A DNA stretch of 64,000 bases from Rhodobacterales bacterium (GTDB taxonomy: Bacteria; Pseudomonadota; Alphaproteobacteria; Rhodobacterales; CAZPXZ01), in contig CBDCUM010000007.1 of NCBI GenBank assembly GCA_965222665.1, forward strand, positions 22,058-86,057. The letters are read 5' to 3'. The notes under the pieces are model-generated. The model was not told the DNA's origin. It saw nothing but the letters and a program-made list of their open reading frames with translations, and ran no database searches. Of this stretch, positions 18,312-63,789 are shown in pieces. The translations under genes were made by a program, and so were the position numbers. How positions within the stretch are numbered: the first letter of the stretch is position 1; every line of letters starts with the position of its first letter.

Positions 18312-18423
18312 CTCCGGCCCCCGCGCGGCGTCAGTCTTCAACCGTCGGGCGCAGCGGAACGCGGCGCTTCGGCTGTGCTTCGCGCGAGGGCTGGCCCGAT
18401 CCGGCGCAACGGTCGCCTCCGAC

Positions 18424-19650: not shown

Positions 19651-19673
19651 GTTGGGTACCTCCTGTTCTTGTT

Positions 19674-43372: not shown

Positions 43373-44077
43373 TCAGGCCCCGAAATACGCCTCCCGCACA
43401 TGCGGATCGTCCCGCAGTGCCTCTGCTGTTCCGCTCAGCCGGATCTCTCCGGTCTCCAGCACATGGATCCGGTGTGCGAGCCGCATCGCGAAATTCACGT
43501 TCTGCTCCGTGATGAGCACGGTCAGGCCCAATTCCTCGTTCATGCGCCGGAGCGCGGCGGCAATATCCAGGCAAACCTTCGGCGCCAGACCGATGGTCGG
43601 CTCGTCCACGATCAACAACCGTGGCCCGGACATCAGCGCCCGGCCCAGCGAGACCATCTGCCGCTCCCCTCCGCTCTGCGTTCCGGTCTCCTGCTTCTGC
43701 CGCTCCTCGAGAATCGGGAACAGGTCGTAGACCCGGCGCAGGTTGCGGTCGATTTCCTTCGGGGCCGTATGGGCACCCGCCAGGAGATTGTCGCGAACAC
43801 TCATGAACGGAAACAGGTGCCCCCGCTCCGGCGCGTATCCGACACCAAGGCGCACAATCTCCGTCGGCCGGCGGCCGGACAGGCTCTCGCCGTCAAGCAC
43901 TACTTCACCCCGGATCGACACCAGGCCGAGAATGGAATCCAGAAGCGTGGACTTTCCGGCGCCGTTCGGACCGATCACCGCGACAATTTCTCCGGCCTCC
44001 ACCGAGAGCGAGACCCCATGCAGCGAACATGCGCGGCCGTAGAACGCCTCCAGGTTTCGAATGTCGAGGAAGGCCAT
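43373..44077 (-). CDS. ABC transporter ATP-binding protein (LivF-like)
   Basis: GPNGAGKSTLL; QSGGERQMVSLG; LLIVDEPTIGLAP; ends REAYFGA. Confidence 0.9.
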   Translation of the reverse strand: MAFLDIRNLEAFYGRACSLHGVSLSVEAGEIVAVIGPNGAGKSTLLDSILGLVSIRGEVVLDGESLSGRRPTEIVRLGVGYAPERGHLFPFMSVRDNLLAGAHTAPKEIDRNLRRVYDLFPILEERQKQETGTQSGGERQMVSLGRALMSGPRLLIVDEPTIGLAPKVCLDIAAALRRMNEELGLTVLITEQNVNFAMRLAHRIHVLETGEIRLSGTAEALRDDPHVREAYFGA

Positions 44078-44086
44078 CGGGAACGC

Positions 44087-44818
44087 CTACGCCTCGCCCA
44101 GGTAGGCTTCCCGGACCCTCGGATCCGCCATCGCCTCCTCGAAGGTTCCGCGCGAGATCTCGGCACCAAAGGCCATCACCACGACCCGGTCGACCAGGGG
44201 GGCAAGGGACCGGAGGTCGTGGCTGACGATGACATAGGTCATCCCCTCCTTCCGGCGCGCCTGCAGCAACTCGGTGAGCTGCGCGATTTCCCCGACGGTG
44301 AGTCCGGCGAACACCTCGTCGAGCAGCAGCATCTCCGGTCCGGTGGCCAGCGCCCGCGCGAGCTCAAGCTTGCGGAGTTCGCCCATGGACAGCTGGCCCG
44401 GCAGCATCGCCGCCTCGCGGGCACCAAATCCGACGCTCTCGAGAATTCCCCGCTCCCGGTCCTCCGGCTCCGTCTCAAACACCAGGCGGCGGATGCTGTC
44501 GGGCATCATCCCGACCCGGACATTTTCCAGCACGTTCATCTCTCCGAACGGACGCGGCACCTGGTGGGTGCGCGCCATTCCACGAACGATGCGGGAATGG
44601 GTCGGAACCCGCGTAATGTCCTCGCCCCGGAAGTGGACGCTGCCGCTATCGGGCCGAATATCACCCATCAGGATGCTGAATGCGGTGGTCTTGCCGGCAC
44701 CGTTCGGGCCGATCAGGCCCACGGACTCCCCGGCGTCGACGCGCAGGTCCAGGCCATTGACCGCCACCAGACCGCCAAAGCGCTTGGTCGCGCCGCGCAA
44801 CTCCAGGAGCGCGCTCAC
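44087..44818 (-). CDS. ABC transporter ATP-binding protein (LivG-like)
   Basis: GTG 44818 overlaps the permease TGA (GTGA) and follows GGAG. LLELRGATKRFGG; GPNGAGKTT; LLLLDEVFAGL. Confidence 0.88.
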   Translation of the reverse strand: MSALLELRGATKRFGGLVAVNGLDLRVDAGESVGLIGPNGAGKTTAFSILMGDIRPDSGSVHFRGEDITRVPTHSRIVRGMARTHQVPRPFGEMNVLENVRVGMMPDSIRRLVFETEPEDRERGILESVGFGAREAAMLPGQLSMGELRKLELARALATGPEMLLLDEVFAGLTVGEIAQLTELLQARRKEGMTYVIVSHDLRSLAPLVDRVVVMAFGAEISRGTFEEAMADPRVREAYLGEA

Positions 44819-45783
44819 GAAATCAGCTCCTGCCAGCGCCGCGGGGCCAGGCGCTGCCACGTCTTGCTGATGATCCGGTGCAGCCCCCGCGGCTCCAGCA
44901 CATAGACGACCAGCGCAATGGAGCCGTAGATGAAGTACCGCTCGGGTCCCGGCAGCACCGGCCTGAGATACTCCAGGAGGAAGGTGAGGAAATAGGCGCC
45001 AAGGATCGGGCCGGCGACGGTTCCGGAGCCACCGAGAAGCGCCGCCACGAGAATGGTGAACAGGAAATTGATGTCGAACAGGCCGCGCGGCGCGATCGAG
45101 CCCAGGTAATGCGTGTAGAAGGCCCCGCCCACACCGGCGATGAACGCGCTGACGATGAAGGCGAACAGCTTCAGGCGGGTGGTGCTGAGGCCGGAGTCGG
45201 TCACCGCTTCCTCATCCATGCGGATGGCACCAAGCGCTACGCCCATGCGGGTCCGGAACAGGAGCCAGACCGCGATGCCCACCGCGAAGGTGATCGCGAA
45301 GGAAACGTAGAAATTGGGAACTGCGCCTTTCACGACCGAGTCGATCCCCGAGAGCCCACGCGTCCCGCCGGTGACGCCCGGAGCGACGACCTTCGTCATC
45401 TCGTAGATGAGCTCCATGAAGGCCAGCGTCACAAGGGCGAAATAGGTGCCCCGGATCCGAAGTGCCGGAAGGAAGAACAGGGTTCCCCCGACCACGGCCG
45501 CCAGGACGCCTGCAGGAATGGTGAGCCAGAGCGGCCAGTCGAGATGGTACGATAGGATTGCGCTCGTGTACGCCGCAAGTCCGATCAGGAACGGATGGCC
45601 GAAGCTGATGTAGCCGGTGCGGCCCGAGATCACGTCCCAGCTCATGGCGAAGATCGCCAGGAAATTTGCAAAGACCATCACCCGCACCGTGCCGGTCGGA
45701 AGGACCAGCGGCGCAATGCACATCGCCACTCCGAACAGCAGCCACAGGGTGAGTTGCCTGCCTGTTCTGCCGGGACGCATCGT
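44815..45783 (-). CDS. branched-chain amino acid-type ABC permease (LivM-like)
   Basis: A 322-aa membrane protein from MRPGRTGRQLTLWLLFG. ATG 45783 overlaps the upstream stop. Confidence 0.85.
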   Translation of the reverse strand, partial: TMRPGRTGRQLTLWLLFGVAMCIAPLVLPTGTVRVMVFANFLAIFAMSWDVISGRTGYISFGHPFLIGLAAYTSAILSYHLDWPLWLTIPAGVLAAVVGGTLFFLPALRIRGTYFALVTLAFMELIYEMTKVVAPGVTGGTRGLSGIDSVVKGAVPNFYVSFAITFAVGIAVWLLFRTRMGVALGAIRMDEEAVTDSGLSTTRLKLFAFIVSAFIAGVGGAFYTHYLGSIAPRGLFDINFLFTILVAALLGGSGTVAGPILGAYFLTFLLEYLRPVLPGPERYFIYGSIALVVYVLEPRGLHRIISKTWQRLAPRRWQELIS

Positions 45784-46634
45784 CAGAGCTCCCCGCGCCC
45801 GAAGAGGCCCTTGGGCGAAACGACCAGCACGACGATGATCAGCAGCATCGTGAACACGTTGCGCAACTCGGCGGCGATCAGCGTGGTCGTGATGGTCTCC
45901 ATGAATCCGATCAGGTGGGCCACGACGAGGCTTCCGATGACGCTCCCGATTCCGCCGACCACGACCACGGCCACCGCGATGATGAGGGGCGTCACCCACA
46001 TCCCGGGGCTGAGCTGGGTGTAGGTGGCGAAGAACACGCCGGCGAGGGCGCCCAGCGCGCCGGATATCGCCCAGGTGGCCAGACTCGCCATGTCGGGGTC
46101 GATGCCGGAGAGGATCGCCCCCCTGCGGTCCATGGAGACTGCGCGGATCGCGCGTCCCATCCGCGTGTAATGGGTGAAGAGAAGCAGGCCGCCAAGCGCC
46201 GCCCAGCTCATCACCATGGCGGCCAGGATATTGTATGTCGCGAACACGCCCTCAAAGCGGAAGACGCCGTTCACGAGAGGCCACATCGTCTTCGGAGCAG
46301 CCTGGAAAACCAGGACGATCGCGGCCTGCATCACGACGGCGAGCATCAGCGTCGAGATCTCGACCGCGATGGGATTCTCGCCGAGGCGGCGGACGAGCAC
46401 GCCGAAGGTGATGACCCCGAACGCGACTCCGGCAACCACCGCAATAAGAAGTCCCGCGATCTTGGGCATGCCGGCGAGTTGCACGACGGTGTAGTAGACG
46501 TAGCCTCCCAGCATGATGTACACGCCGTAGGCGAGATTGAGCACCCGGCCGACACTGAAGATCATCGTGAATCCGACCGCCAGGAGGGCATAGAGGCCGC
46601 TCAGGGCAAAGCCCTGAATAAGAATGTTGATCAT
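45783..46634 (-). CDS. branched-chain amino acid-type ABC permease (LivH-like)
   Basis: MINILIQGFALSGLYALLAVGFTMIFSVGRVLNLAYG is a typical LivH N-terminus. Confidence 0.88.
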   Translation of the reverse strand: MINILIQGFALSGLYALLAVGFTMIFSVGRVLNLAYGVYIMLGGYVYYTVVQLAGMPKIAGLLIAVVAGVAFGVITFGVLVRRLGENPIAVEISTLMLAVVMQAAIVLVFQAAPKTMWPLVNGVFRFEGVFATYNILAAMVMSWAALGGLLLFTHYTRMGRAIRAVSMDRRGAILSGIDPDMASLATWAISGALGALAGVFFATYTQLSPGMWVTPLIIAVAVVVVGGIGSVIGSLVVAHLIGFMETITTTLIAAELRNVFTMLLIIVVLVVSPKGLFGRGEL

Positions 46635-46716
46635 GTGGCGGGGCCTGCCGGCGCTTCGGAAGGGGGCGCGCCCCGGGGATCCGGACCGGATCCCGGGGCG
46701 CAGGGCTTCAGCCGGA

Positions 46717-48030
46717 CTACTTCAGCCAGGAAGGAACGTCAAACACTCCGTTGGCGTATTTCGGCGGATACACCACCTTCACGCTGCCGTCCTCGTACCA
46801 CTGGACAATCACCATCGGCGGCCCGCCCTCGTCGAACGGCGGGGTCACGTCGAACCGGATGTTGTGGGGCCATTCCCGCCCGGTCCTCGGCTCAACTTCA
46901 CCTCGCTGGAAGTAGGAGTAGCGGTGCCAGAACTCCCCGTTCCGGGTCAGCACGACATCGGTCTTCTCCATCTCGCGCACCCAGTCATCGAGCGGCTCGA
47001 AGCCGCCAGAACGCTCCGCCGCAGCAAAGGCGTTTTTAACGCCGTAATAGGCGTTGTAGCCGTTGAAGTGAGGAACAACCGGCCGGGATTCGCCGTATTT
47101 CGCCTGGTACGTCTTCAGGAATTCTGCCGACACGTCGTCGAGATCCATGCCGACGGCAGGCATGGGCGAAAAGGTCGAAGTGCCACCGCCCTGGCCGCCC
47201 GTGTCCTCCCAGAATTCGAGGCCCAAGGCCGAGACGTTGATGCCGGTCATCGGCATCGGAACCTGGAGCTTCACGTATTGGGAGGACGGCACCTCGCTCT
47301 TGACCGAGGAGATCAGGTAGATAAAGTCAGCCCCCGTGCTGACAGCTTCGTTGAAGATTGGCGCGAAATCAGTCGCATTGTAGTCATATACTATGGTGTC
47401 GAGAACCTTGATTCCCGCCTCACCCTCAATCACACCAACCACGAACTCCTGCACAGCTCCCGCATAGGCCGTGTCCTCCTGCAGGATGACGGTTGTCTTC
47501 CAGCCCATCTGCTCAACAAGCACCTCCTTGCCGAAATCGACGTACATGGTGCCGAGCGCCCAGTCATTGCCGATGTTCATGAAGTACATCTTGTAGGTCT
47601 CGAATTCAGTCGCGACCTTCTCGATGATTCCGTAGAACGAAGTCCAGGTGTCGAGCGTGGGGATGCGGTACTCAGCCATGCGCGGCAGCCAGCCGAGCGA
47701 AACGTCGTCAATCGAACCGGAGACGATGAAGTCGACCTCCTCGACCTCCGCGAGATACTCGTAGGCCTTGATCCCCTCCGTCGGGTCCTGACCTGTGTCC
47801 GCCTTGACCAGCTGAATTTCCCGGCCGCCGAGAGCTCCGCCGGCGGCATTCAATTCCTCGATAGCGATCTCTGCACCCCGGAGCGTGCTCTTCCCGGTAT
47901 CCGACGCGAAGGAGCCGATAAAGCCCACTACCACCGGATCGTCAGCAGCCGCGCCGCCTGTCGGCGCGCCAATAGCGCCAATCAGGACCACCGTTGCGAG
48001 GAACGCCGGAACTCGCTTGATTGCGTGCAT
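46717..48030 (-). CDS. periplasmic substrate-binding protein, Leu/Ile/Val-binding (type I PBP) family
   Basis: ATG 48030 follows GGAGGAG. Signal peptide MHAIKRVPAFLATVVLIGAIGAPTGGAAA. VVVGFIGSFASDTGKSTLRGAEIAIEELNAAGG. Confidence 0.85.
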   Translation of the reverse strand: MHAIKRVPAFLATVVLIGAIGAPTGGAAADDPVVVGFIGSFASDTGKSTLRGAEIAIEELNAAGGALGGREIQLVKADTGQDPTEGIKAYEYLAEVEEVDFIVSGSIDDVSLGWLPRMAEYRIPTLDTWTSFYGIIEKVATEFETYKMYFMNIGNDWALGTMYVDFGKEVLVEQMGWKTTVILQEDTAYAGAVQEFVVGVIEGEAGIKVLDTIVYDYNATDFAPIFNEAVSTGADFIYLISSVKSEVPSSQYVKLQVPMPMTGINVSALGLEFWEDTGGQGGGTSTFSPMPAVGMDLDDVSAEFLKTYQAKYGESRPVVPHFNGYNAYYGVKNAFAAAERSGGFEPLDDWVREMEKTDVVLTRNGEFWHRYSYFQRGEVEPRTGREWPHNIRFDVTPPFDEGGPPMVIVQWYEDGSVKVVYPPKYANGVFDVPSWLK

Positions 48031-48191
48031 AATCTCCTCCTCTGCTGTCCACCGCCGGCAGTTGCCGACGGGATCTCCCGGATCCGGCCTGCCGGCACCG
48101 GGATCGTTGCCGGGGCGCACCCGCGGGGCGCGTCCCGTTCGAAACCTCTGCTCGACCCGCGGGACCGGACGCTATCCGGACCCGTGCCTCC

Positions 48192-48599
48192 TCAGTATTC
48201 GATCGTGCCCTCCTCGTCATGGACGATGGCGTCGACTTCGACCTCGACCATCATTCCGGGCGTGGTCAACCCGGCCTCCACGCCGGTTGACACGGGCCGG
48301 ATGCCGCGGAAGACCTTGCCATGCGCCCGAACGAATTCGCCCGCCTTGCCCAAGTCGGACAGGAACGCCCGGGTTCGCGTCACGTGGCGCATCTCCGCGC
48401 CGACCTCCGCGAGCGCCTTCTCCACACGTCCGAAGGCGAACAGGGTCTGCGCGTAGGTATCTCCCGGCGCGTGCAATTGCCCCGAGGGCTCGATCGCGGT
48501 GGTGCCGGCAATGAAGACGAACGGGCCGACCCGCTTGGCGCGGACATAGGAACCGATCTCCTCGAACCTTCCCCCGCCTGCCGCGCTTCGAAGAACCAT
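48192..48599 (-). CDS. RidA/YjgF/UK114-family reactive-intermediate (imine/enamine) deaminase
   Basis: ATG 48599 follows GAGGGAA. VGPFVFIAGTTAIEPSGQL..DTYAQT..FGRVEKALAEVGAEMRHVTRTRAFL..EVEVDA. Confidence 0.8.
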   Translation of the reverse strand: MVLRSAAGGGRFEEIGSYVRAKRVGPFVFIAGTTAIEPSGQLHAPGDTYAQTLFAFGRVEKALAEVGAEMRHVTRTRAFLSDLGKAGEFVRAHGKVFRGIRPVSTGVEAGLTTPGMMVEVEVDAIVHDEEGTIEY

Positions 48600-48612
48600 T
48601 TCCCTCTTCCGC

Positions 48613-49797
48613 TCAGGATGCGAGCCGCTCGCGGATCGCGACCGCGGCCGCCGCGAGCTGGCGCTGCTCCCCATCGGAGAGGGGAAACTCCTCCACCTCG
48701 ACGAGGCCCTTCGTGGAGAGATGGCACGGCACTCCCAGCGGCACGCGCTCGATGCCGTATTCACCGGTGAGCATGACCGTCGCGGGAACCGCGCCGGCCC
48801 GAGCACCGCGCATATGCTCCAGCAATTCCAGGACCGCATGGGCCGGGGCAAGATTGGCCGATCCGATCTTCCGGAGAGAGACTACCCGTGCACCCCCTTC
48901 CACCGCCTGCCGGACGCAGTCCTCAATCGCGGCAGGCGAAAGGAATCGCTCCAGCGGCTGACCCCGGATGCGGGCGCGGGATATGAGTGGAACCATTTCG
49001 TCCCCATGGCTGCCGAGCACCATCGCCTCGACATTGCTGATCGGAACACCGGCCGCCGTCGCCAGCGCGCCCCTGAGGCGGGCCGAATCCAGCGTCCCCG
49101 CCATCCCGATCACGCGCTCCCGCGGAAAGCCCGTGGCATGGAATGCCTCCGCGGTCATTTCGTCCAGCGGGTTCGAGACGACAACCACCACCGTATTCGG
49201 CGCCGCATCCCGAACCGTCTCGGCTACCCGCCGCATCGTCCGCCGGTTCGCCTGCAGCAGGTCCGCCCGCCGCATGCCGGGTGCGCGTGGCCGTCCCGCC
49301 GTGATCACGACGACATCGGCCCCGGCAGCGCCGGCAAGGTCCACCCCCCCTGCGGCGCGCGTCGACGAGCACGTAATCCCGGCCGCGTGGTCGAGATCAA
49401 GCGCGATGGATTCCGCCAGGCCGGGAACAATGTCGATCAGGACGACCTCGCTCGCCGTTCCGCCCGCAGCCGCCAGATGCGCCAGCGCTCCGCCGACTCC
49501 GCCCGCGCCCACAATCGCGAGCCGGCCGATCCGCTCCGCCCGGGGGCGCGGCGATGGGCGGGCGGCGGCCCAGCCCGGATTGCGGCGGTAAAGGCCGCGG
49601 TAGAGCGCCGTGGGCCCGGCGACTGCCGGACGTGCCGGCGACTCCAGGGGCCCGGTTCGAAGACGCACTTTGAGGCGGGCCGCAGTCTCCCGCGCCTGCT
49701 CCGTGACAATTGCGCCGGGGACCAATTCGATCTGCCGCCGCCCGCGCCGGCTCGCCCGCTCCACATGCTCCGCACCAATGACAGGTCGGCCACTCAC
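48613..49797 (-). CDS. malate dehydrogenase (LDH-like MDH family) with an 80-aa N-terminal extension
   Basis: Core: LAIVGAGGVGGALA, ITAGRPRAPGMRRADLL (Arg at the substrate-specificity position, so MDH-type), VVVSNPLD, VLGSHGDEMVPL. Extension: VSGRPVIGAEHVERASRRGRRQIELVPGAIVTEQARETAARLKVRL plus a Pro/Ala/Arg linker. GTG 49797 overlaps the BMC-T TGA (GTGA). Confidence 0.8.
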   Translation of the reverse strand: MSGRPVIGAEHVERASRRGRRQIELVPGAIVTEQARETAARLKVRLRTGPLESPARPAVAGPTALYRGLYRRNPGWAAARPSPRPRAERIGRLAIVGAGGVGGALAHLAAAGGTASEVVLIDIVPGLAESIALDLDHAAGITCSSTRAAGGVDLAGAAGADVVVITAGRPRAPGMRRADLLQANRRTMRRVAETVRDAAPNTVVVVVSNPLDEMTAEAFHATGFPRERVIGMAGTLDSARLRGALATAAGVPISNVEAMVLGSHGDEMVPLISRARIRGQPLERFLSPAAIEDCVRQAVEGGARVVSLRKIGSANLAPAHAVLELLEHMRGARAGAVPATVMLTGEYGIERVPLGVPCHLSTKGLVEVEEFPLSDGEQRQLAAAAVAIRERLAS

Positions 49798-50134
49798 GGG
49801 ATGGGTCGCCCTTCCACTTCGCCAAGCGCCGTTGTCGCCGCTTCCATTGCGGCCTCGACGGAGGCCTCCGCGCCGGAAATGAAGAACCGGCCGTAGCGGC
49901 CGACCGCCCGCACCTGCGCGATGTCGATCTCGGCGGCCTTCTCCGCTTCGTTGATTGCGAGGCTGACATAGGCGGCGGGGGAGCATTCCAGAATTCCGAG
50001 GGTCTGGCCGGGCACGACGAGCGAGCCGGACGACCACTTGTTGAGTAGTTGCGCCTGGTAGGGCTCCACCGAGGTGATGATCTGCTGCGATTCCACATGC
50101 GGGCGCAGCCGGTCGGTGATCGACATTCCGAGAT
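49794..50134 (-). pseudogene. BMC-T shell protein, second (C-terminal) permuted BMC domain, cut off by IS-A copy 2
   Basis: ..ITDRLRPHVESQQIITSVEPYQAQLL..GQTLGILECSPAAYVSLAINEAEKAAEIDIAQVRAVGRYGRFFISGAEASVEAAMEAA has the strand order of permuted BMC domains (EutL/PduB/EutS-like). It joins in frame to 52653..52946. Confidence 0.7.
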
Positions 50135-52652
50135 CAGACTTCCTGACCTCGTGCGCTAATTGAAGGCGGGCTTGGCGATCGTTTTGCTCGTGATTTCCAG
50201 CAGTTAGGAGACATTTGAGGGGTTGACCGATCTACGGAGAGTGGCTATAATACTGTGCACCCGATATCGACCGTGGAGACTCCCTTGAACACGCTTCCGA
50301 TGCCTCCTGCCGAGGCGATCCAGATCGGCGAATCCTGCTTTTCGCACGCGGTCGAGGACGGCCGGCGGGTCTACTTCAGCAACCTGGCGCCGTTCGATTC
50401 CCACGAAGTTTCGGACAACCGAGCGCGACAGCTGCGGATTGCGCGGTTTGCCGAGCACGGTGTGCTACGCAGGGATCTGGCGGCGGCGTTTGGCGTGAAC
50501 CGTTCGACGGTGCAGCGGGCAGTGAACCAGCTCCGGAGGCAGGGCGAGGCCGGTTTTCTTACGCCGCGACGGAGGCGCGGGCCGAGCGCGATCGACGCCG
50601 CGACGGCGCGGGAGGCGGAGCGGCTTCTGGCCTCGGGGCTGAGCGGCCGGGCGGTTGCGCGAAAGCTGGGGATCCGGCCGAGCACGTTCAGCCTCAACCG
50701 CCGGTCGGGTGTTATCAGAGGGGGGACGCCGAACCGGGCCGTGCCGGCGCAGGCGACAGCGTCGACGGAGCCGCAGGCGACGGCAGTGCTGGAGCCGCCG
50801 GTGGTCGCGTCGACGGAGCCACAGGCGGCGGCAGCGCCGGAGCCGAGGGTGGAGCGGAGCGAACGGGACGCACGCGACCGCGAGGCGCCGATGGGTCGGG
50901 GCACCCGGGACACGGCGGGGCGGATGCTGGCGGCAACGGGACATCTGACGGAGATGCGGCCGCAGTTTGCGGAGCCGCTGTCGGCGGTTGCCGGCGGCGG
51001 CGTGCTGGCCGGGCTGCCGATGCTGCTCAAGGAGGGGCTTCTGGACCGCGCGCGGGAGTTCCTGTCGCTGCCCAAGGGATACTACGGTTTGACCACGGTT
51101 CTGCTGTTCCTGGCCTTCCTCACCCTGGCCCGGGTGCGCAATCCGGAGGCACTGCGGCACCAGGCGCCCGGGGAATGGGGCGCCATCCTGGGCCTGGACC
51201 GCTGCCCGGAGGTGAAGACGCTGCGGGGCAAGATCAAGGCGTTGGGGCGAGACGTGCAACGGGTGCGGGACTGGCAAGCTTCCCTGGCCGCGGGATGGAT
51301 GGCGGAAGAACCGGACGTGTGTGCGACCCTGTCGGTGGATGGCCACGTCAAGGTGTATTCCGGCCGCAAGGGAAAATTGCCCAAGCATTACGTGGCGCGC
51401 CAGAAACTCTGCCTGCCTGCCTCCACGAGCTACTGGATCAACGCGCTCGGCGGCAAGCCGTTCCTGTGCCTGAACAAGGCGCTGGATCCGACCATGACCC
51501 ACGCGCTGGAGAAGGACATCCTGCCCGCGCTGGAGAAACTGGGCATGCTGGGCCCGGATGCACCGGACCTCACCGTCCCGGACGCCGGCGAGCCCGCCCT
51601 GACGCTGGTCTTCGACCGGGAAGGCTGGAGCCCTGCCCTGTTCCGGCGCCTCGCCCGGCGCGGGGTTGCTGTGATCACCTGGCACAAGGGCTTCAAGGGG
51701 GAGGCCTGGCCGGAGGCGGACTTCCGCACCGTCACGGTGCCCATCCACGGGCCGGGAAGCACCCGCAGCGCCACCGTCCGCCTCGCCGAGAAGAGCGTGA
51801 TCCTGAGCAAGGGGCCCGAAGTCCGCCAGATCCGGCGCCTGCTGGAGAATGGCCGCCAGGTGCCCCTCATCACCACCGACCCCCGCATGCCCATGGAGCG
51901 GGCCGCCAGCGCCCTGTTCTCCCGATGGTCGCAGGAGAACTTCTTCAAATACATGCGCGAGGAGTTCAATCTCGACGCGCTGGCGGTCCACGGTTTGGAA
52001 GCACAGGATCCCGACGCCCGCATCGTCAACCCGCGCTGGCGCGCAATCGACCGCAATGTCCAGCGCTTCCGGCAGCGCCTTGGCACCCTGCGCAACCGGA
52101 TCGCCGACCTGTCCAGGGGAACCCCGACCCGCGAAGCCGAAGAGGCCGTCCGGCGCCTGCAGGCCCAAAGCGACGCTCTCGACGCCGAGCGTGAAGCCCT
52201 CAAGCTGCAGCGCCGCGATACACCGCGACATATCGCGGTCGCCGAACTCGACACGAACGAGGCACTCGACGCGCTCCCCGAAGGCGAGAAACTCCTCCTC
52301 GATATAATCCGCATGATCGCCTACCGCGCTGAAACCCGCATGATGCCCGCCGTTGCCCAGACCCAGGGCAAGATCCAGCGCCCCCGCCGGCACTTGCGCG
52401 CACTTCTACGGGCCGACGCCGACGTCATCCCGGAGCACGGCAACGGCATCCTCCGCGTTCGCATACTCGGCACCGCCAGCGATGCCGGCGACAACGCCAT
52501 CGCAAGCCTCCTCGAAGAACTCAACCAGACACGGACCGTCTTCCCCGGTACCAACATGCACATGGTCTATGAACTACCCGGAAAAATCGCCGAGCCCCAC
52601 TTCGCGGGTGCAAAAACATGACACTCTCTCGAGTTCGAGGTCAGGAAGTCTG
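50135..52652 (+). mobile_element. IS-A, copy 2 (identical to copy 1, inverted orientation), 2518 bp
   Basis: Same 17-bp IRs at 50135-50151 and 52636-52652. The 5-bp duplication GAGAT lies at 50130-50134 and 52653-52657. Confidence 0.92.
50255..52621 (+). CDS. IS-A transposase (identical 788-aa protein)
   Basis: Track ORF identical to 32326..34692. Confidence 0.85.
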   Translation: MHPISTVETPLNTLPMPPAEAIQIGESCFSHAVEDGRRVYFSNLAPFDSHEVSDNRARQLRIARFAEHGVLRRDLAAAFGVNRSTVQRAVNQLRRQGEAGFLTPRRRRGPSAIDAATAREAERLLASGLSGRAVARKLGIRPSTFSLNRRSGVIRGGTPNRAVPAQATASTEPQATAVLEPPVVASTEPQAAAAPEPRVERSERDARDREAPMGRGTRDTAGRMLAATGHLTEMRPQFAEPLSAVAGGGVLAGLPMLLKEGLLDRAREFLSLPKGYYGLTTVLLFLAFLTLARVRNPEALRHQAPGEWGAILGLDRCPEVKTLRGKIKALGRDVQRVRDWQASLAAGWMAEEPDVCATLSVDGHVKVYSGRKGKLPKHYVARQKLCLPASTSYWINALGGKPFLCLNKALDPTMTHALEKDILPALEKLGMLGPDAPDLTVPDAGEPALTLVFDREGWSPALFRRLARRGVAVITWHKGFKGEAWPEADFRTVTVPIHGPGSTRSATVRLAEKSVILSKGPEVRQIRRLLENGRQVPLITTDPRMPMERAASALFSRWSQENFFKYMREEFNLDALAVHGLEAQDPDARIVNPRWRAIDRNVQRFRQRLGTLRNRIADLSRGTPTREAEEAVRRLQAQSDALDAEREALKLQRRDTPRHIAVAELDTNEALDALPEGEKLLLDIIRMIAYRAETRMMPAVAQTQGKIQRPRRHLRALLRADADVIPEHGNGILRVRILGTASDAGDNAIASLLEELNQTRTVFPGTNMHMVYELPGKIAEPHFAGAKT

Positions 52653-52946
52653 GAGATAGGAAAGGATTGCCTCCCGGGCTGCGGAGATTTCGGAGTTGAG
52701 CGGCGAGCGCAAAATGAAGAACCCGAACTCGCGCTCGACGATCTGGCTGGTGGCCTCGGCCCGGCTCGCCTTCAGCGCCTTGTCGATGGCAGTAAACACC
52801 TCGTTTCCGGGCGCGACCTCGCCGATCAGGATGGTGTCGCCCGCGAGGGGGATGGAGCCCTGCACCGTCGCACCGTTGTAGGCGGCGAATTTCGGCTGTA
52901 GCCGGTCGATCTGGACCAGCGCACGGATGGTGACCCGCGAAGCCAT
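52653..52946 (-). pseudogene. BMC-T shell protein, first permuted BMC domain, truncated by IS-A copy 2
   Basis: MASRVTIRALVQIDRLQPKFAAY..GDTILIGEVAPGNEVFTAIDKALKASRAE..FGFFILRS..AREAILSYL, then the IS end. The start overlaps the ALDH stop by 1 nt. Confidence 0.7.
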
Positions 52947-54334
52947 CAGGCATCCCCTCCATAGGCGTCATAGACGCTCCGCCAAGGCGTGGATTCCCAG
53001 GCGACCCGCTTGATATTGATCAAGTGCAATGCGGTGACATTGTCGCTGGTGATCGAACCCGATGCGGTTCCGGTTCCTAGCATGAAACTGGGCTCGAGCG
53101 CCGTCGAATATCCCATTCCGCCCGTGAGCGCCGGGGTGTTGACGAGCACCCGTCCGGTCGGCAGCCGGGAGAACGCAGCCACGACGTCCGGGTCCCGCGT
53201 GTGCACGACGCTGGTGTGGCCCCACCCCCCCCGGCGAACCACCTGATCCGCGAGAGCGATCCCGGCCTCGCGGCTCGGGGCCTCGTACCAGGCAAGCACG
53301 GGATTGAGCTTCTCCGCGGATAGCGGCTCTCCCGGCCCGACTTCCGCGGCCTCGGCCACCAGCACGCGGGTCCGTGCCGGAACCTCGAACCCGGAAAGCG
53401 AGGCGAGGCGAGGCGCGGATTGCCCGACATTGGCCACGATGAAGGCCCCGTCCCTGTCGAAGATCACCCGCGCGAGCCGCCCTGCCTCGGTCGCGGTGCA
53501 GAAATACGCGCCGCGAAGCTTCATCTCGTGGCGAAGCTGCCGCGCAACACTCCGGTCGGCAATGACGGCCTGCTCCGCAACGCAGGCGGTGCCGTAGTCG
53601 AATGACTTCGAAGCAATGATCTGCTCCGCTACCTCGTCCAAATCATTGGCCATCGATTCATGCACATAGACCGGCACGTTGCCCGGCCCGACGGCCAGCG
53701 TGGGCTTCCCGGAGGAATAGGCGGCGCGGACCATGGCGGAGCCGCCTGTCGCCATCACCACGGATGTGCGCCGGTGCCGCATCAGCGCGTCCGTGCCCTC
53801 CACGGTGACCTCGCTCAGACACTGGATCAGCCCCGCGGGAGCCCCTGCCCGCTCCGCCGCACCCGCCAGCACTTCCGCAGTGGCGAGCCCGCAGCGTGCG
53901 CCCCGGGGATGGGGAGCGCAGACGATGGCATTGCCCGCCTTCACCGCGGAAAGGGCCTTGTAAATGATCGTGGAGGTGGGATTGGTCACTGGAATCAGCG
54001 CCGCCACGACCCCCATGGGTTCGCCGATCGCAGCAATCCGGCTCGCCTCATCGCGCCAGAGCACGCCGAGCGTGCGCACGCCCCGCAGCCATTCTGCGAC
54101 CTCGAGCGCATTGAACAGGTTCTTGATTCGCTTGTCCGCAATGTTGCCGTAGCGCGTCTCCTCCACGGCGAGGCGGGCAAGCCGCGTCGCCTCCGGCTCG
54201 ATCGCGCGCGCCATCTCCCCAACGATTTCGTCAATCGCCTCCGGCGGTGTGTCGCGGAACGCCAGATGTGCCTCCCACGCACGCTCGGCGGCGCGGCGGG
54301 CCGCGGCAATCGATCGAAGATCGCCATCCATCAC
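52946..54334 (-). CDS. CoA-acylating aldehyde dehydrogenase (EutE/PduP/AdhE-N type)
   Basis: IPVTNPTST; VMATGGSAMV; AVGPGNVPV; catalytic Cys in SFDYGTACVAEQAV; 462 aa. The start (GTG 54334 or ATG 54331) overlaps the upstream TGA. Confidence 0.85.
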   Translation of the reverse strand: MMDGDLRSIAAARRAAERAWEAHLAFRDTPPEAIDEIVGEMARAIEPEATRLARLAVEETRYGNIADKRIKNLFNALEVAEWLRGVRTLGVLWRDEASRIAAIGEPMGVVAALIPVTNPTSTIIYKALSAVKAGNAIVCAPHPRGARCGLATAEVLAGAAERAGAPAGLIQCLSEVTVEGTDALMRHRRTSVVMATGGSAMVRAAYSSGKPTLAVGPGNVPVYVHESMANDLDEVAEQIIASKSFDYGTACVAEQAVIADRSVARQLRHEMKLRGAYFCTATEAGRLARVIFDRDGAFIVANVGQSAPRLASLSGFEVPARTRVLVAEAAEVGPGEPLSAEKLNPVLAWYEAPSREAGIALADQVVRRGGWGHTSVVHTRDPDVVAAFSRLPTGRVLVNTPALTGGMGYSTALEPSFMLGTGTASGSITSDNVTALHLINIKRVAWESTPWRSVYDAYGGDA

Positions 54335-55521
54335 CGCTCTCCCCGGGCAACCGCATCCATGGCGCGGCGCGCATCGTCCAGATTGCCCGTATCGATGCCG
54401 ATCGCATCAAGCCGACGCCCGGCATTGACGAGCCCGCCCCCGAGCGCCGCCTGCGCAAGGGTTGCAACTGAGCGCGTCACAGGCGCATCGAGGCCCGCGG
54501 CATCGGCAGCGGAAAGAAGCGGGATCAGGGATCCGATCACCGCGCAGCGGGCGAGGCGGGCCGCTTCATCCGTGGACGGGGCCGGGCGCAGCCCTTCCCC
54601 GGCTTCCGCCCCGGCACACATCTCGATCCACTCACCGGTGCCGGGCAGGTTGCGAACGCCCCAGCGCGCGGCCACCCGGCGGCGTTCCGCGGCCATCGCG
54701 TCGATCACCGCCTCGTGGCGCAAGCCGATGAGCGCACGAAAATTGGACCGCTCCTCCAGGGGTTCCGCCCCCGGCGGCAATTCCAGTCCGCCCGGCGGGC
54801 ATAGCGGCCCTCCGAGCAGAAGCGCCGGGATCTCCACGAGCCCGCTGCCGTCGGCGAAGCCGCCATGTACTACGGTCGGCACCGGACGGAGATTCGGGAG
54901 GTATCGCGACACGCCCTGCACCGCGTCGAGCCGGTCGCTTGGCAAGGCGGCGGCCGGAACCGGCGCAGCGCGGGTGAGATGGAGGGCCGAGCCCTCCTCG
55001 CGGATCCAGTATGGAGGGCCCTGGGTCTCCACGAGCGCGAAGTCGGCCACGCAACCGCCGGCACGGAGCAGCCAGGCCGCCTCGAGAGCACCCAGCGAAC
55101 GGCCCGGTGCCATTGCCAGAATTTGTCCGTCCGAGAGGTGCTCGGCCAGCACCATGGCGTAGGTCCGCTGCTTCAGCACCGGTCCCGTGAGAAAGATCAG
55201 CTCCGCGCCCTGAATCGCGGAGTCCAATTCTCCAGAGAGCCGGATGGAAGGGCCCTCGGCCCGGTTCACGGCAAAGGTTCCCACCGGGCCGGTCCCCCGG
55301 AGCGTGATCCCGCCAGCGCGCCGCAACGGCTCCATCTCGCGCCCATAGGCCGAGAACAGTGTCACCTCCGCGCCACCTGCAAGGCAGAGGCACGCCAGGA
55401 GGCGCGCTTCCGGCCCGCCTCCAAGCACTGCCACGCGGTCCAGCGTCGGCGTTGGTGACGGGCGCGGCGCCGCGCCCTCCTCGAGCGCGTTCGCAAAGGC
55501 CTCGAATTCCGCTCCGCTCAT
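54331..55521 (-). CDS. opine (octopine/nopaline) dehydrogenase-family NAD(P) oxidoreductase with N-terminal amphipathic helix plus Pro-rich linker
   Basis: Rossmann RVAVLGGGPEARLLA, ..AELIFLTGPV.., ..ILAMAPGRSLGALEA, ..AAERRRVAARWGV..GEWI and ..VIGSLIPLLSAADAAGLDAPVT are collinear with my memory of Arthrobacter CENDH-type opine dehydrogenase. The N-terminus is MSGAEFEAFANALEEG-AAPRPSPTPTL. Confidence 0.7.
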   Translation of the reverse strand: MSGAEFEAFANALEEGAAPRPSPTPTLDRVAVLGGGPEARLLACLCLAGGAEVTLFSAYGREMEPLRRAGGITLRGTGPVGTFAVNRAEGPSIRLSGELDSAIQGAELIFLTGPVLKQRTYAMVLAEHLSDGQILAMAPGRSLGALEAAWLLRAGGCVADFALVETQGPPYWIREEGSALHLTRAAPVPAAALPSDRLDAVQGVSRYLPNLRPVPTVVHGGFADGSGLVEIPALLLGGPLCPPGGLELPPGAEPLEERSNFRALIGLRHEAVIDAMAAERRRVAARWGVRNLPGTGEWIEMCAGAEAGEGLRPAPSTDEAARLARCAVIGSLIPLLSAADAAGLDAPVTRSVATLAQAALGGGLVNAGRRLDAIGIDTGNLDDARRAMDAVARGER

Positions 55522-55573
55522 TGTCGCTCAGGACCGCGCTGGCCGCTCCACGGAGCCGCACGCCATTCCCGTG

Positions 55574-55873
55574 TCAGCCGCCAATGGCGTCCAGCATCGG
55601 CGCAAGGTCATCATGTGGGCGTGGAATCACGTGCACGGCAACCACTTCTCCAACCTTGTCGGCCGCGACCCCGCCCGCGTCGGTCGCGGCCTTCACCGCG
55701 CCCACCTCTCCACGGATCAGCGTGGCGACCAGCCCGCCGCCGGAGCGCGACTGCCCAACCAACTCGACATTGGCGGCCTTCACCATCGCGTCCGCGGCCT
55801 CGATCGCCGCCACGAGCCCGCGGGTCTCGATCATGCCGAGGGCACTGTGGCTGGCAGGTCTTTTCTGGTTCAT
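55574..55873 (-). CDS. BMC-H hexameric shell protein (PduA/EutM/CcmK-like)
   Basis: [66 protein letters not shown] 55873 follows AAGGAAG. An alternative GTG 55891 overlaps the BMC-P stop (GTGA). Confidence 0.9.
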
Positions 55874-55887
55874 TGGAGCTTCCTTCT

Positions 55888-56208
55888 TCACTTGCGGCGC
55901 GCCGGCCGGTCCACGCGCAACGCATTGAGATCCACGTCGCGTGAGCCCACCGACATGTGGTCGACGACAGCAACCGCGGTAGCGTCAGTCGGAACCCCGG
56001 CAGTCTGTCCGGCGATCCGGGCCGCAGACCCGGTCGCAACCAGCACAACGTCGCCAGGGCCCGCATCGCAGGCATCGGTCAGCACAAGGCCAGCCTCGAG
56101 GATCTTCCCATCCGGAGCAATGGCGTCCGCGATCAGCATTCGGTGCCCCGACAGCTGCCCGGCCTTGATGGAGGCGGACACCCGCCCGATTATCCGAGCG
56201 ATGCGCAT
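55888..56208 (-). CDS. BMC-P pentameric vertex protein (EutN/CcmL/PduN-like)
   Basis: [54 protein letters not shown] 56208 overlaps the stop of the GS-like gene by 1 nt. Confidence 0.85.
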
Positions 56209-57506
56209 CAGAAATTCCGCAAGTACCGGCTGGTCTCGAGCGAGGTGACATGGTCGGCAAGCAAGTCCCGCTCCCGCCTTGCCTGGCCCGCCAGGATTTC
56301 AAGCCGCCACTCGCCGAGAACGTTGCGGAGGAATTCCGATTTCTCGGCCAGCGCAAGGGCGGCGTCGATGTCCGCAGGAAGGGGATCCGCATCCTCGCAC
56401 TGGTATGCGTCGCCATCGATGAAGTGCTTCGGCTCAGCCCCGCTCGCCATGCCGTCAAGCCCGGCAGCGAGATCGGCCGCAAGGAGATAGTAGGGATTGC
56501 AGTCGGCCGAGCCATCGCGCTTCTCGACCCGTGTCGCCGCAGGGGAGGAATCGATGATCCGGAGTCCGACTGTACGGTTGTCGCGCCCCCAGCACGTGTT
56601 CACCGGGCAAAAGGTGTAGGGTCTGCGGCGTTTGTACGCATTCGGCGTCGTCGAACCGGCAAGCGCGATTTCCGCCATGCGCAGCTGCAGGCCGCCAAGA
56701 AACGCCAGCCCGGATTTGGACAATCCGCCGTCCTCGCCTGCGAAGGCATTCCGCCCGTCCTTCCAAAGCGAGTAATGGGTATGGAATCCGTTTCCCGAAT
56801 CGTCCGAGAACGGCTTGGCCATGAATGTGGCGAGGTATCCGTGCTTGGCGGCGATCTCCCTCACAAACGACCGGAAAGCCACAACGCGATCCGCCGTACC
56901 CAGCGCCTCGCCGTAGCAGATGTTCACTTCCACCTGCCCGGCAGCGTATTCGGGATTGGATTGCTCAAGCGGGATCCCCACCATGGGCAACTGCCGGCGG
57001 ATCGGGCCAATCACGTGCTCCAACTCCGCGGCGCGGACAAGGCCGTAGAACTGGTTTCCCACGTCGATCGGGCGCCGTGTTTCCGGATCAAGGAGATAGA
57101 ACTCCAGTTCGGCACCGACAAGCACCCGGTATCCCTTCGCCTCCGCCCGAGCCACCTGGTCCTCGAGCGCGCCCCGCGGATCGATCGGAACCGGCTTGTG
57201 GTCCATCCCCTCCGCGCGTCCGAAACTGAACGCGCACCCTTCCTCCCACGGCACCGGATGGACCGGGCCGGATGGAATCAGGTGCATGTCCGGATACCCG
57301 TTCCCCATGTTGACGTAGGGCGTGTCCCACACGTCGCTGGTCATGTCGCAGGCGAATGTCGCGATGGAGAGGGCAATTCCCGACTCGCACACTTCGGCCC
57401 AGCGTTCCGCGGGAACGCGCTTGCCCCGCATCACTCCGTTCAAGTCGCCCAAGCCGATTGCCACCGTGTGCACGCCGTCAGGAAGCCCACGAACATCACC
57501 GGCCAT
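56208..57506 (-). CDS. glutamine synthetase-family ATP-dependent ligase (gamma-glutamyl-amine synthetase type, PuuA/GmaS/IpuC-like)
   Basis: ATG 57506 follows AAGGGGAGA. GAELEFYLL; SNPEYAAGQVEVNI; GNGFHTHYSLW; NAYKRRRP; WGRDNRTVGLRI; RVEKRDGSADCNPY. It lacks the adenylylation-loop context of GlnA. Confidence 0.8.
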   Translation of the reverse strand: MAGDVRGLPDGVHTVAIGLGDLNGVMRGKRVPAERWAEVCESGIALSIATFACDMTSDVWDTPYVNMGNGYPDMHLIPSGPVHPVPWEEGCAFSFGRAEGMDHKPVPIDPRGALEDQVARAEAKGYRVLVGAELEFYLLDPETRRPIDVGNQFYGLVRAAELEHVIGPIRRQLPMVGIPLEQSNPEYAAGQVEVNICYGEALGTADRVVAFRSFVREIAAKHGYLATFMAKPFSDDSGNGFHTHYSLWKDGRNAFAGEDGGLSKSGLAFLGGLQLRMAEIALAGSTTPNAYKRRRPYTFCPVNTCWGRDNRTVGLRIIDSSPAATRVEKRDGSADCNPYYLLAADLAAGLDGMASGAEPKHFIDGDAYQCEDADPLPADIDAALALAEKSEFLRNVLGEWRLEILAGQARRERDLLADHVTSLETSRYLRNF

Positions 57507-57760: not shown

Positions 57761-58051
57761 GGCCGACTTTTCCCTGTCCCGCGAACGCCCGTGGCAGCGC
57801 GCGCGCCAATTCGGATTGCCGCGACACCGAATCCCACTGGCTTCCGTGAACGGAACACTCCGGCACGCTGTTCCCAGCCTGTTCGCAATTCATTCCGAAC
57901 ATGCTGCGAGATTGTTCACCGAACCTGATCGAACACGTAATTCGATCGTGTTTACAAGGAGTTGTGTTCGCTGATCGGAGCCGCGATGCTTGTCGGCGTT
58001 TATCCATCCAGGCGCCCGGCCGATCTCTGGCGCACAGCACTACAGGGCGCC

Positions 58052-59026: not shown

Positions 59027-59474
59027 ATTGGACCGGCAGAATTCGCCCTTGACCGGACGCACACGGTCTCCGCTGCAATTGATTCTGGCTCGTTCTTGAT
59101 CTTGCTCTCCTTGCCGCTACTTGCCTCCGATTGGAGATTGGTGCGCCGGGGAGACTGTCCGATACATGACGGATGGTTTCGCAAGACCGGCTTCCTGCAA
59201 CTGCGAAGCGAATGAGTACTCGTCCGCCCTGTAGCGTATTGGAACGTCGATCATCGCGCCGTCGCGACCATCGCCACAGCCGGCGGGGCAGGAGCAAGCG
59301 AATGGCGATGCCGCACCGCCATTTTGCCCGCGAAAAGCATCCAGTCCGGTGAGGAAAATGTTCCCCGTGCGCGAGCGCCAGGAACGATGCGGCCGGGTTG
59401 CCCAAGTTTCCCGTGCCGCCAGCGGCGCGTTCCGCTACCGCTTGGCCAGGTTGAACTTTGCACGCAAGAATTGG

Positions 59475-60570: not shown

Positions 60571-60571
60571 G

Positions 60572-63777: not shown

Positions 63778-63789
63778 ATCGGACCGGCA

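Follow-up and report, generated by a model that had tools for sequence, protein, structure and literature searches.

A probable MIC2-type metabolosome locus, damaged by an insertion sequence, in a Rhodobacterales bacterium, and a possible glutamate-linked amine chemistry for its type

Introduction

Which type of bacterial microcompartment (BMC) is encoded in a 64,000-nucleotide stretch of contig CBDCUM010000007.1, and what chemistry might it enclose? The stretch, called the window hereafter, comes from an uncultured Rhodobacterales-like alphaproteobacterium, and its minus strand carries a chain of genes for three kinds of BMC shell protein (H, P and T), a CoA-acylating aldehyde dehydrogenase (ALDH), a glutamine synthetase (GS)-like ligase, an opine-dehydrogenase (ODH)-like enzyme, a malate dehydrogenase (MDH) and a Rid-family protein. 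A reading made from the letters alone (the sequence-only reading) could match this locus to no named BMC type; its set of enzymes and shell proteins is that of the catalogued type MIC2. Judging from the published description of MIC2 and from protein identities obtained with hidden Markov models (HMMs) and structures, we have little doubt that the locus is a copy of an MIC2-type metabolosome. For the explanation that we regard as the best overall, an MIC2 locus with a glutamate-linked amine mechanism that is present here as a damaged copy, we estimate a probability of about 0.6.

Assignment to the MIC2 type

MIC2, which stands for 'metabolosome with incomplete core 2', was described from 22 loci and has no function assigned (Sutter, Melnicki, Schulz, Woyke & Kerfeld, 2021, Nat Commun 12:3809, Supplementary Data 2; PMC8217296). 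According to this catalogue, the MIC2 shell consists of one H, one P and one Tdp protein; the aldehyde dehydrogenase (AldDh, pfam00171, acylating) is without a recognised encapsulation peptide; the lactate/malate dehydrogenase (L/MDH, pfam02866) has an N-terminal extension of ~70 aa, which is confined to the BMC context; a protein of the 6PGDH-like superfamily has a short helical N-terminal extension; and the locus also holds a pfam00120 GS-like protein, whose model is named for MIC2 alone in the catalogue's HMM list (PMC8217296). The locus in the window corresponds to this description. Its shell genes match PF00936, PF03319 and the CcmP model, which agrees with the H + P + T shell proposed from sequence alone, and the intact 209-aa orthologue of its BMC-T is composed of CsoS1D_N and BMC domains. 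The ALDH aligns to structure 5j78 from residue 2 and has no N-terminal extension; the Ldh domains of the MDH begin at residue 92, and the extension ahead of them is kept in 73 related loci; the ODH-like protein has a helix at residues 4-15 ahead of its Rossmann fold; and the gene for the PF00120 protein opens the operon in 80 of the 82 related loci described below. Concerning hosts, catalogued MIC2 loci belong to Acidithiobacillia, Alpha- and Gammaproteobacteria and two Actinobacteria, with members such as Ca. Rhodobacter lobularis and metagenome-assembled genomes of Rhodobacteraceae, Rhodospirillaceae and Chromatiales, some of them from sponge symbionts (PMC8217296), and the related loci found here belong to the same taxa. 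This copy thus has the same AldDh, extended L/MDH, extended 6PGDH-like protein, GS-like protein and proteobacterial host as MIC2, but differs from the description in that its BMC-T is split by an insertion sequence (IS) and the adjacent oxidase gene is truncated.

By AldDh phylogeny, the types nearest to MIC2 in the catalogue are MIC1 and RMM1 (PMC8217296). MIC1 resembles the present locus in having an acylating AldDh core without phosphotransacylase (PTAC), an L/MDH with an N-terminal domain and a CcmP-like BMC-Tdp, but the Zn alcohol dehydrogenase of MIC1 is not present here. RMM1 resembles it in processing an amine (1-amino-2-propanol or aminoacetone) and in having an amino-acid permease, which occurs also in two distant MIC2-like loci (L087 and L088), but the class-III aminotransferase, aminopropanol kinase and phospholyase of RMM1 are not present here. 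When class-III aminotransferase, APH kinase and short-chain dehydrogenase/reductase (SDR) genes were sought beside the shell genes, none was found in the window, and the SDR only was found in related loci (11 of 82). RMM was rejected because an aminotransferase and a kinase are missing; similarly, a carboxysome was rejected because there is no RuBisCO or carbonic anhydrase, and EUT, PDU and GRM types because there is no lyase or glycyl-radical enzyme.

The canonical metabolosome core of the PDU, EUT and GRM types is composed of a signature enzyme, AldDh, PTAC and alcohol dehydrogenase, and AldDh alone is present here. Open reading frames (ORFs) and HMM searches in the interval of the locus gave no PTAC, alcohol dehydrogenase, B12 lyase, glycyl-radical enzyme, aminotransferase, kinase or aldolase; across the 82 related loci, no PTAC, alcohol dehydrogenase, lyase, glycyl-radical enzyme, aminotransferase or aldolase is conserved. 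The locus had been described from sequence alone as a metabolosome with an acylating ALDH and with no PTAC, alcohol dehydrogenase or classical signature enzyme, and this is borne out.

Layout of the gene chain

An ORF check gave the same chain of eight minus-strand genes followed by an importer, with the same junctions and coordinates, as had been read from the letters (Table 1). The stop of the GS-like gene and the ATG of the BMC-P gene at 56208 share 1 nt. The BMC-P and BMC-H genes overlap by GTGA if the BMC-H start is taken at 55891; the probable true start is the ATG at 55873, which gives a protein of 99 aa and is the start called in relatives. The 3' end of the ODH-like gene overlaps the ALDH start, the ALDH and BMC-T genes overlap by 1 nt, the MDH start overlaps the BMC-T stop by 4 nt, and the gap between the MDH and Rid genes is 13 nt. 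The five-gene Liv-type ATP-binding cassette (ABC) importer (43373-48030) lies ~160 nt past the Rid gene on the minus strand. Gene identities were assigned by Pfam and NCBIfam HMM searches, in which the CcmP model has 213 positions. Promoter and terminator scans over 43-60 kb gave results at chance level, except for a strong promoter-like site inside the IS before its transposase gene.

Table 1. Features of the BMC locus and its adjacent genes; positions are those of the window
Feature	Position	Strand	Evidence or remark
FAD enzyme (DAO) like monomeric sarcosine oxidase / N-methyltryptophan oxidase	59515..60576	+	PF01266 1.7e-46; divergent from BMC operon
GS-like gamma-glutamyl ligase (predicted)	56208..57506	-	PF00120 4.3e-82
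BMC-P pentamer (vertex) shell protein	55888..56208	-	PF03319 (EutN_CcmL) 3.5e-19; in 77/82 loci
BMC-H hexamer shell protein	55574..55891	-	PF00936 1.4e-26; EutM-like 8e-34
ODH-like NAD(P) oxidoreductase, opine-dehydrogenase fold (6PGDH-like superfamily)	54331..55521	-	AlphaFold2 (AF2) + Foldseek
CoA-acylating ALDH, EutE/AdhE-N type	52946..54334	-	acetylating acetaldehyde dehydrogenase (ACDH) TIGR02518 3.8e-138
BMC-T N-terminal half, tandem permuted CcmP/CsoS1D type	52653..52946	-	CcmP model positions 3-97
Insertion sequence, 2518 bp, not part of the system	50135..52652	+	transposase PF21804 8.2e-108
BMC-T C-terminal half	49794..50134	-	CcmP positions 101-205, 1.5e-32; PF00936 1.5e-08
Lactate-dehydrogenase-like MDH + N-terminal module	48613..49797	-	NF004863 3.1e-90; Ldh_1_N/Ldh_1_C residues 92-389
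Rid-family (YjgF/L-PSP) protein	48192..48599	-	PF01042 4.9e-20
ABC importer periplasmic substrate-binding protein (Peripla_BP_6)	46717..48030	-	PF13458 1.9e-34
ABC permease, LivH-like	45783..46634	-	
ABC permease, LivM-like	44815..45780	-	
ABC ATPase, LivG-like	44087..44818	-	
ABC ATPase, LivF-like	43373..44077	-	

Conservation of the unit in related loci

We scanned one genome per species, which gave relatives in 142 genomes, and 80 loci were fetched; a gene table was made with tblastn over 82 related loci of Alpha- and Gammaproteobacteria, where most absences are contig ends. The gene order is invariant: DAO on the opposite strand, then GS-like, P, H, ODH-like, ALDH, T, MDH, Rid, the binding protein, two permeases and two ATPases. 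The numbers of loci having each gene were 77 for DAO, 80 for GS, 77 for P, 81 for H, 79 for ALDH, 76 for T, 73 for MDH, 68 for Rid and 51-56 for the ABC genes, and the gene for the binding protein comes after the Rid gene in 53 of the 60 loci with enough flank. Because the order is invariant in 82 loci, chance juxtaposition was rejected, and the view that the enzymes are conserved neighbours of the shell genes stands. The FAD oxidase near 59.5 kb, which the sequence-only reading had named as a possible partner, is therefore a member of the conserved unit, together with the Rid gene and the transporter. The published MIC2 text is silent on the sarcosine-oxidase-like gene, Rid, the transporter and the MgsABC-like genes treated below, which are conserved neighbours in our data.

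The hosts are Rhodobacterales/Paracoccaceae, Hyphomicrobiales and Geminicoccaceae and, among Gammaproteobacteria, Granulosicoccaceae, Halioglobus, Immundisolibacterales and Chromatiales; several carriers are marine, and marine Rhodobacterales and Hyphomicrobiales make up a large part of the hosts. Cultured carriers are available: Microbaculum marinum KCTC 52363, Hoeflea alexandrii, Hoeflea poritis, Nitratireductor sp. XY-223, Ruegeria profundi and Aliishimia ponticola.

The ODH-like protein has more than 600 close homologues of ~396 aa. Its specificity was examined by a profile search against 1.8 billion representatives. Relatives with the N-terminal extension (P0139, P0146, P0151 and P0167) are all in the GS-P-H-ODH-ALDH context, and the next tier (P0176) has neither the extension nor a BMC context. 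In the data of this analysis, the family was seen only in the MIC2-type gene order, and the protein is a family-specific marker of MIC2 loci. On the basis of this marker, at least 142 species genomes can now be set against the 22 loci of the catalogue.

Other genes recur beside the unit with less regularity. A class-I GATase / Peptidase_C26-like hydrolase is present in 21 loci, and amidases and the aforementioned SDR are also recurrent. In the two distant MIC2-like loci (L087, 3343-5309; L088, 12518-14035), an APC-family amino-acid permease is present in place of the ABC importer, and L087 adds a DUF3156 protein. This replacement points to a small amine or an amino-acid-like molecule as the transported substrate; the APC permeases themselves gave no clue to its identity. 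The window contains a second Liv-type ABC transporter (13709-20058, minus strand; Peripla_BP_5/6 binding protein, permeases and ATPases), which adjoins an amidase gene; in L003, L087 and five other loci, amidase genes are likewise found beside the MIC2 genes.

Resemblance to N-methylglutamate gene clusters

A GntR regulator gene and a trio of GATase_6, GXGXG and FMN-glutamate-synthase genes lie directly beside the oxidase gene in 35 of the 63 loci whose upstream flank is long enough. The domain make-up of this trio is that of N-methylglutamate synthase MgsABC; our label 'MgsABC-like' refers to domain composition and gene order only, because NCBIfam has no specific model for Mgs subunits. The GATase / Peptidase_C26-like gene noted above accompanies the trio in its 21 loci. 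The trio was found also in L093, a locus of the window's own clade (73% ODH identity and a downstream tetratricopeptide-repeat gene in common), and in the distant L087 and L088, where it is rearranged to either side. The earlier proposal of amine use through gamma-glutamyl or N-substituted amino-acid chemistry gains support from these occurrences.

The canonical N-methylglutamate cluster is gmaS-mgsABC with divergent mgdABCD, as in Methylobacterium extorquens DM4 (PMC6237917). MIC2 loci resemble it in that the gene for a GS-like ligase is downstream of, and on the same strand as, the GATase_6/GXGXG/FMN-glutamate-synthase trio, and the gene for an enzyme of the sarcosine-oxidase kind is in the opposite orientation. 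No second GS-like or DAO gene was found within 10 kb in the 82 tabulated loci, and the MIC2 GS-like gene therefore holds the position of gmaS by mgsABC, and the monomeric oxidase that of mgdABCD. The differences are a monomeric oxidase instead of the four-subunit MgdABCD and the presence of a BMC shell, acylating ALDH, MDH and ODH-like gene in the MIC2 operon, and the trio is absent from the window.

Active-site features of the encoded proteins

The alignment shows that the GS-like ligase retains the motifs for metal, ATP and glutamate. At the position where GS carries its flap Glu (GYEAP) and Rhodovulum GmaS its Trp300, the ligase has Phe299, and this Phe is invariant among its relatives (79 of 79). 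Asp177 of GmaS, the residue that deprotonates methylamine, aligns to an invariant Asn184, and Glu186 of GmaS is kept as Glu193. All scores are below the cut-offs of the respective models: 213.5 bits against 469.6 for TIGR03105 (GSIII/GmaS), 199.6 against 650 for PuuA and 196.8 against 429 for TIGR00653 (GlnA). A true glutamine synthetase (GSI/GlnA) was rejected because of Phe299 in place of the flap Glu and the TIGR00653 score, and a canonical GmaS because of the TIGR03105 score and the change from Asp177 to Asn184. The ligase is like GmaS in being without the GS flap Glu and differs from it in that it is no GmaS equivalog. Because the flap Glu is replaced, the core motifs are kept and every model score is below its cut-off, we predict that the protein is a gamma-glutamyl ligase of a distinct subfamily.

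The oxidase was characterised from an intact orthologue, which matches sarcosine oxidase 7exs (4.9e-31) and the N-methyl-L-tryptophan oxidase model NF008425 (201 bits; cut-off, 257). Sarcosine oxidases and N-methyltryptophan oxidases convert an N-alkyl amino acid to an amino acid and an aldehyde.

The AF2 model of the ODH-like protein (predicted local distance difference test, pLDDT, 88.9) begins with a helix at residues 4-15, followed by a low-confidence linker. Its top Foldseek match is the opine dehydrogenase CENDH (1bg6; E 1.2e-20, TM 0.83), followed by octopine and staphylopine dehydrogenases and then by ketopantoate reductases. The first ~27 residues are missing from non-BMC relatives, which begin at profile position ~28, and in the model the N-terminal helix with its linker looks like an encapsulation peptide. 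A role in staphylopine-type metallophore synthesis was rejected because no CntK/L-like genes are present.

The closest solved relative of the ALDH is the acetylating acetaldehyde dehydrogenase 5j78 (2.2e-123). Its gene encodes a conserved C-terminal tail of ~15 residues (52946-52993; consensus RPWRD.Y..YG), which is found in 79 related loci and lies beyond the region of solved homologues.

The MDH is closest to a lactate-dehydrogenase-like MDH (1uxi, 4.7e-66), and solved MDHs align only from residue 92. The equivalent of Arg102 is present in every motif-matched sequence, while six sequences were unmatched. The N-terminal extension (~90 aa, conserved in 73 loci) has two parts in the AF2 model, an alpha/beta domain of ~45 aa that is modelled with confidence (residues 5-48) and a disordered linker of ~35 aa (residues 52-85, pLDDT below 50). 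This modelled architecture is consistent with a tether. The EutQ/cupin-like homology catalogued for the extension was not reproduced, there being no Pfam match at E up to 0.1; a profile of 25 sequences matched no solved structure, and a homologue search with the 95-aa segment returned one protein.

The Rid protein scores 42 bits on TIGR00004 (cut-off, 106 bits), and its closest solved structure is the uncharacterised 3i7t. In place of the Arg with which the PARS motif of RidA binds the carboxylate of the 2-imino acid, this protein has Ser104, and 67 relatives have T, L, M, S or V. An archetypal RidA imine deaminase was therefore rejected, and the quenching of imines, which the sequence-only reading had assigned to this protein, is weakened as a proposal.

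Proposed mechanism

The gene set and the above likenesses lead us to propose, tentatively and at somewhat less than an even chance, that MIC2 serves amine catabolism via gamma-glutamyl and N-substituted-glutamate intermediates, with the resulting aldehyde trapped as acyl-CoA. A small primary amine would be imported; the ALDH has its closest likeness to acetaldehyde-type enzymes, which makes C2-C3 the best guess for the size of the amine. The GS-like ligase would join the amine to glutamate with ATP, in the manner of GmaS, PuuA or IpuC, and in most lineages the adjacent MgsABC-like enzyme would turn the product into an N-substituted glutamate. Oxidation of the C-N bond by the sarcosine-oxidase-like enzyme, the BMC-specific ODH-like enzyme or both would then give glutamate and an aldehyde. 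As a source of aldehyde in the lumen, these two candidates have opposite merits: the oxidase has precedent chemistry and no targeting peptide, while the ODH-like enzyme has a targeting-like peptide and an altered active site. Inside the shell, the ALDH would capture the aldehyde as acyl-CoA, which would have to exit the shell because no CoA-recycling enzyme is encoded in any locus. NADH would be reoxidised by the MDH, converting oxaloacetate to malate, and possibly also by the ODH-like enzyme running reductively; recycling of NAD+ by the MDH, as the sequence-only reading had proposed, is plausible. Alternatively, the ODH-like enzyme may work reductively (2-oxo acid + amine + NADH), either as a second recycler of NAD+ or as a substitute for the Mgs step.

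A number of observations weigh against this explanation. The opine-dehydrogenase catalytic dyad is not conserved: in a profile alignment to 1bg6, the His of 'MHP' corresponds to an invariant Glu230 and the Asp of 'FEDV' to Ala327 in the ODH-like protein, the catalytic pair of CENDH being His202/Asp297. The protein also gave a sub-threshold match to PF02317 (Octopine_DH; E 0.0047, 17.4 bits against a cut-off of 30 bits), and we rejected a true opine dehydrogenase in spite of the shared fold; classical opine-dehydrogenase chemistry is therefore not to be assumed, and the earlier view that this enzyme oxidises the C-N bond is uncertain. If the ODH-like enzyme and the ALDH were both oxidative, the balance of NADH would pose a problem. 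The near-equal scores of the GS-like protein on the GSIII/GmaS, PuuA and GlnA models (197-214 bits), all under the cut-offs, mean that the amine cannot be named from its sequence, and the binding protein has weak matches to solved Leu/Ile/Val-type binding proteins, from which no ligand is inferable. No encapsulation peptide is evident in the oxidase, whose gene is transcribed separately; the Rid protein, without the RidA arginine, gives no support for imine handling; and Mgs-like genes are absent from the 64-kb window and the trio also from 28 of the 63 loci with enough flank. Finally, we found no functional study or experiment on MIC2 in the literature searched.

Alternative explanations

Gamma-glutamylation of amines is known from the PuuABCD pathway of E. 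coli, from the pathway proposed for ethanolamine with GlnA4 in Streptomyces and from isopropylamine degradation with IpuC. In these, as may be the case in MIC2, a GS-like enzyme gamma-glutamylates the amine with ATP and oxidation follows, and some MIC2 loci have a hydrolase-like gene; none of these pathways is known to be encapsulated or to have an Mgs-like step. They use hydrolytic, not CoA-acylating, aldehyde dehydrogenases, which is a difference from MIC2. An alternative built on them, which we consider improbable, is that an amino-alcohol or diamine is processed while it stays in gamma-glutamylated form: the oxidase, the ODH-like enzyme or an SDR would oxidise its far end to an aldehyde, the ALDH would use this gamma-glutamyl-aldehyde, and a hydrolase would later free glutamate. 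The presence of a GS-like ligase beside a DAO-family oxidase mirrors PuuA and PuuB, the PuuA model score is close to that of the GmaS-type model, and the PuuD-like GATase / Peptidase_C26-like hydrolase, the amidases and the SDR recur as described. On the other hand, the PuuA score is far under its cut-off, the oxidase is nearest to oxidases of secondary amines (sarcosine, N-methyl-Trp) and not to primary-amine oxidases, the ALDH is of the acylating EutE/AdhE type and not of the hydrolytic PuuC type, and the recurrent MgsABC-like trio would be left without explanation.

Still less probable, in our judgement, is an N-methylglutamate pathway for methylamine or an N-methyl amino acid in which the shell confines free formaldehyde, the oxidase replaces MgdABCD and the ALDH makes formyl-CoA. 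All three steps of the N-methylglutamate pathway would then be represented by the GS-like, MgsABC-like and N-methyl-amino-acid-oxidase-like proteins, and the largely marine Rhodobacterales and Hyphomicrobiales hosts would fit, since GmaS-dependent use of methylamine is reported as common in marine bacteria (PMC7948447). However, the GS-like protein is far below the GmaS-type cut-off and has Asn for GmaS Asp177, the ALDH is nearest to acetaldehyde enzymes, and there is no formyl-CoA or folate-linked gene among annotated or recurrent neighbours, though the flanks were not searched specifically for these.

To a cleavage of imported opines (N-(carboxyalkyl) amino acids such as alanopine, strombine or tauropine, from marine invertebrates and algae) by the ODH-like enzyme and the flavoenzyme we give a similarly low chance. 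The ODH-like protein shares the CENDH fold, enzymes of the sarcosine-oxidase type cleave N-substituted amino acids, and there are marine species among the carriers (several) and sponge symbionts among the sources of the catalogued MIC2 members. Such a cleavage, however, yields an amino acid and a 2-oxo acid and no free aldehyde for the acylating ALDH, it has no role for the ATP-dependent GS-like ligase or the Mgs-like trio, and the missing His/Asp dyad and the PF02317 score given above do not favour it. Lastly, a BMC type not yet described is very unlikely: the function of MIC2 is unassigned and the oxidase, Rid, transporter and Mgs-like neighbours are absent from the published MIC2 text, but the complement of enzymes and shell proteins, including the N-terminal extensions of the L/MDH and the 6PGDH-like protein, is what was catalogued as MIC2 in 22 loci.

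Damage to this copy and mobile elements

The sequence-only reading had hinted at an IS within the locus and had pointed to syntenic loci without it as a source of the intact gene set, and both points proved right. The element ends in perfect terminal inverted repeats of 17 bp and is flanked by a target duplication of 5 bp (GAGAT); its transposase of 788 aa (50255-52621, plus strand) belongs to Transposase_29. The N-terminal fragment of BMC-T corresponds to residues 1-101 of the intact orthologue, and the IS falls between the two BMC domains. It is absent from three metagenomic contigs with 94% DNA identity (L084-L086) and from the more distant L001, in all of which BMC-T is intact with 209 aa. 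A second copy, 100% identical, is present at 32295-34812 in inverted orientation with the target duplication AATTT, and is nested in an older, diverged relative of the same IS (31072-32294 and 34813-35881; 79-86% identity). Judging from the identical second copy, the element has been recently active in this genome. The MDH and Rid genes, which are translationally coupled, lie downstream of the copy in BMC-T, so that a polar effect on these two is likely.

The oxidase gene is also damaged. It is truncated at the 3' end, with residues 1-355 of 381 left and the last ~26 codons lost at the breakpoint 60576/60577, and the truncated ORF reads on without a stop to 61380. Past the breakpoint, there is an unrelated opposite-strand ORF from 61965 to ~60600, which is itself 3'-truncated and has no Pfam match; the breakpoint may be either a real rearrangement or an assembly join. 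In relatives, the distance from the GS-like gene to the oxidase gene, which is upstream of it and on the opposite strand, is ~120-250 bp, whereas here an Rpn/YhgA-like gene (57962-59026, plus strand; Transposase_31 + DUF4351) pushes the two apart. This insertion is common to L084-L086 and absent from L001. More Rpn-like remnants (62386-63814) and a 224-bp repeat (58841-59063 and 63591-63814; 90.6% identity) were found at a distance of 4.5 kb. Because BMC-T is split by the IS, the oxidase is truncated and there are no Mgs-like genes in the 64 kb, the locus is probably inactive in this genome.

The load of mobile elements in the window is unusually high. A group II intron lies at 3601-5830 (minus strand), with a reverse-transcriptase/maturase ORF at 3601-5187 (RVT_1 + GIIM) and Rfam matches to group-II D1-D4 at 5265-5408 and 5608-5830. 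There are also two large Tn5-like transposase ORFs (11201-13672, minus strand; 39319-41679, plus strand) with Tnp_DNA_bind, Dimer_Tnp_Tn5 and DDE domains, both of which match the Pfam family of Druantia DruA in the N-terminal region. Irregular copies were seen in other MIC2 loci as well: in P0146 (a JGI contig), an IS110-family transposase gene comes after the ALDH gene in place of BMC-T, and in L002 (12576-14821), the gene calls of BMC-T and MDH are fragmented, which may be due to long-read indel errors.

Implications

Because this locus type was catalogued in 2021, the claim of a new BMC type fails by the standard that the sequence-only reading had itself set, and the locus is a further, damaged example of MIC2. 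The 82 loci and the separately fetched contigs define a conserved unit larger than that of the published MIC2 text, since it includes the oxidase, Rid and the transporter and often the GntR regulator with the MgsABC-like trio. The enlarged gene set turns the 'unknown' of MIC2 into a specific biochemical hypothesis, which can be tested in the cultured carriers. The checks of active sites, namely the Phe at the GS flap, the RidA arginine and the opine-dehydrogenase dyad, correct assumptions of annotation that would be misleading for pathway reconstruction. We consider it rather doubtful that MIC2 is the first microcompartment built on glutamate-linked amine chemistry, working with no B12 enzyme, radical enzyme or PTAC and with an encapsulated MDH that recycles NAD+. 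If this should hold, the catabolism of amines through N-substituted glutamates would join the encapsulated chemistries, and malate dehydrogenase would be the cofactor recycler of a metabolosome.

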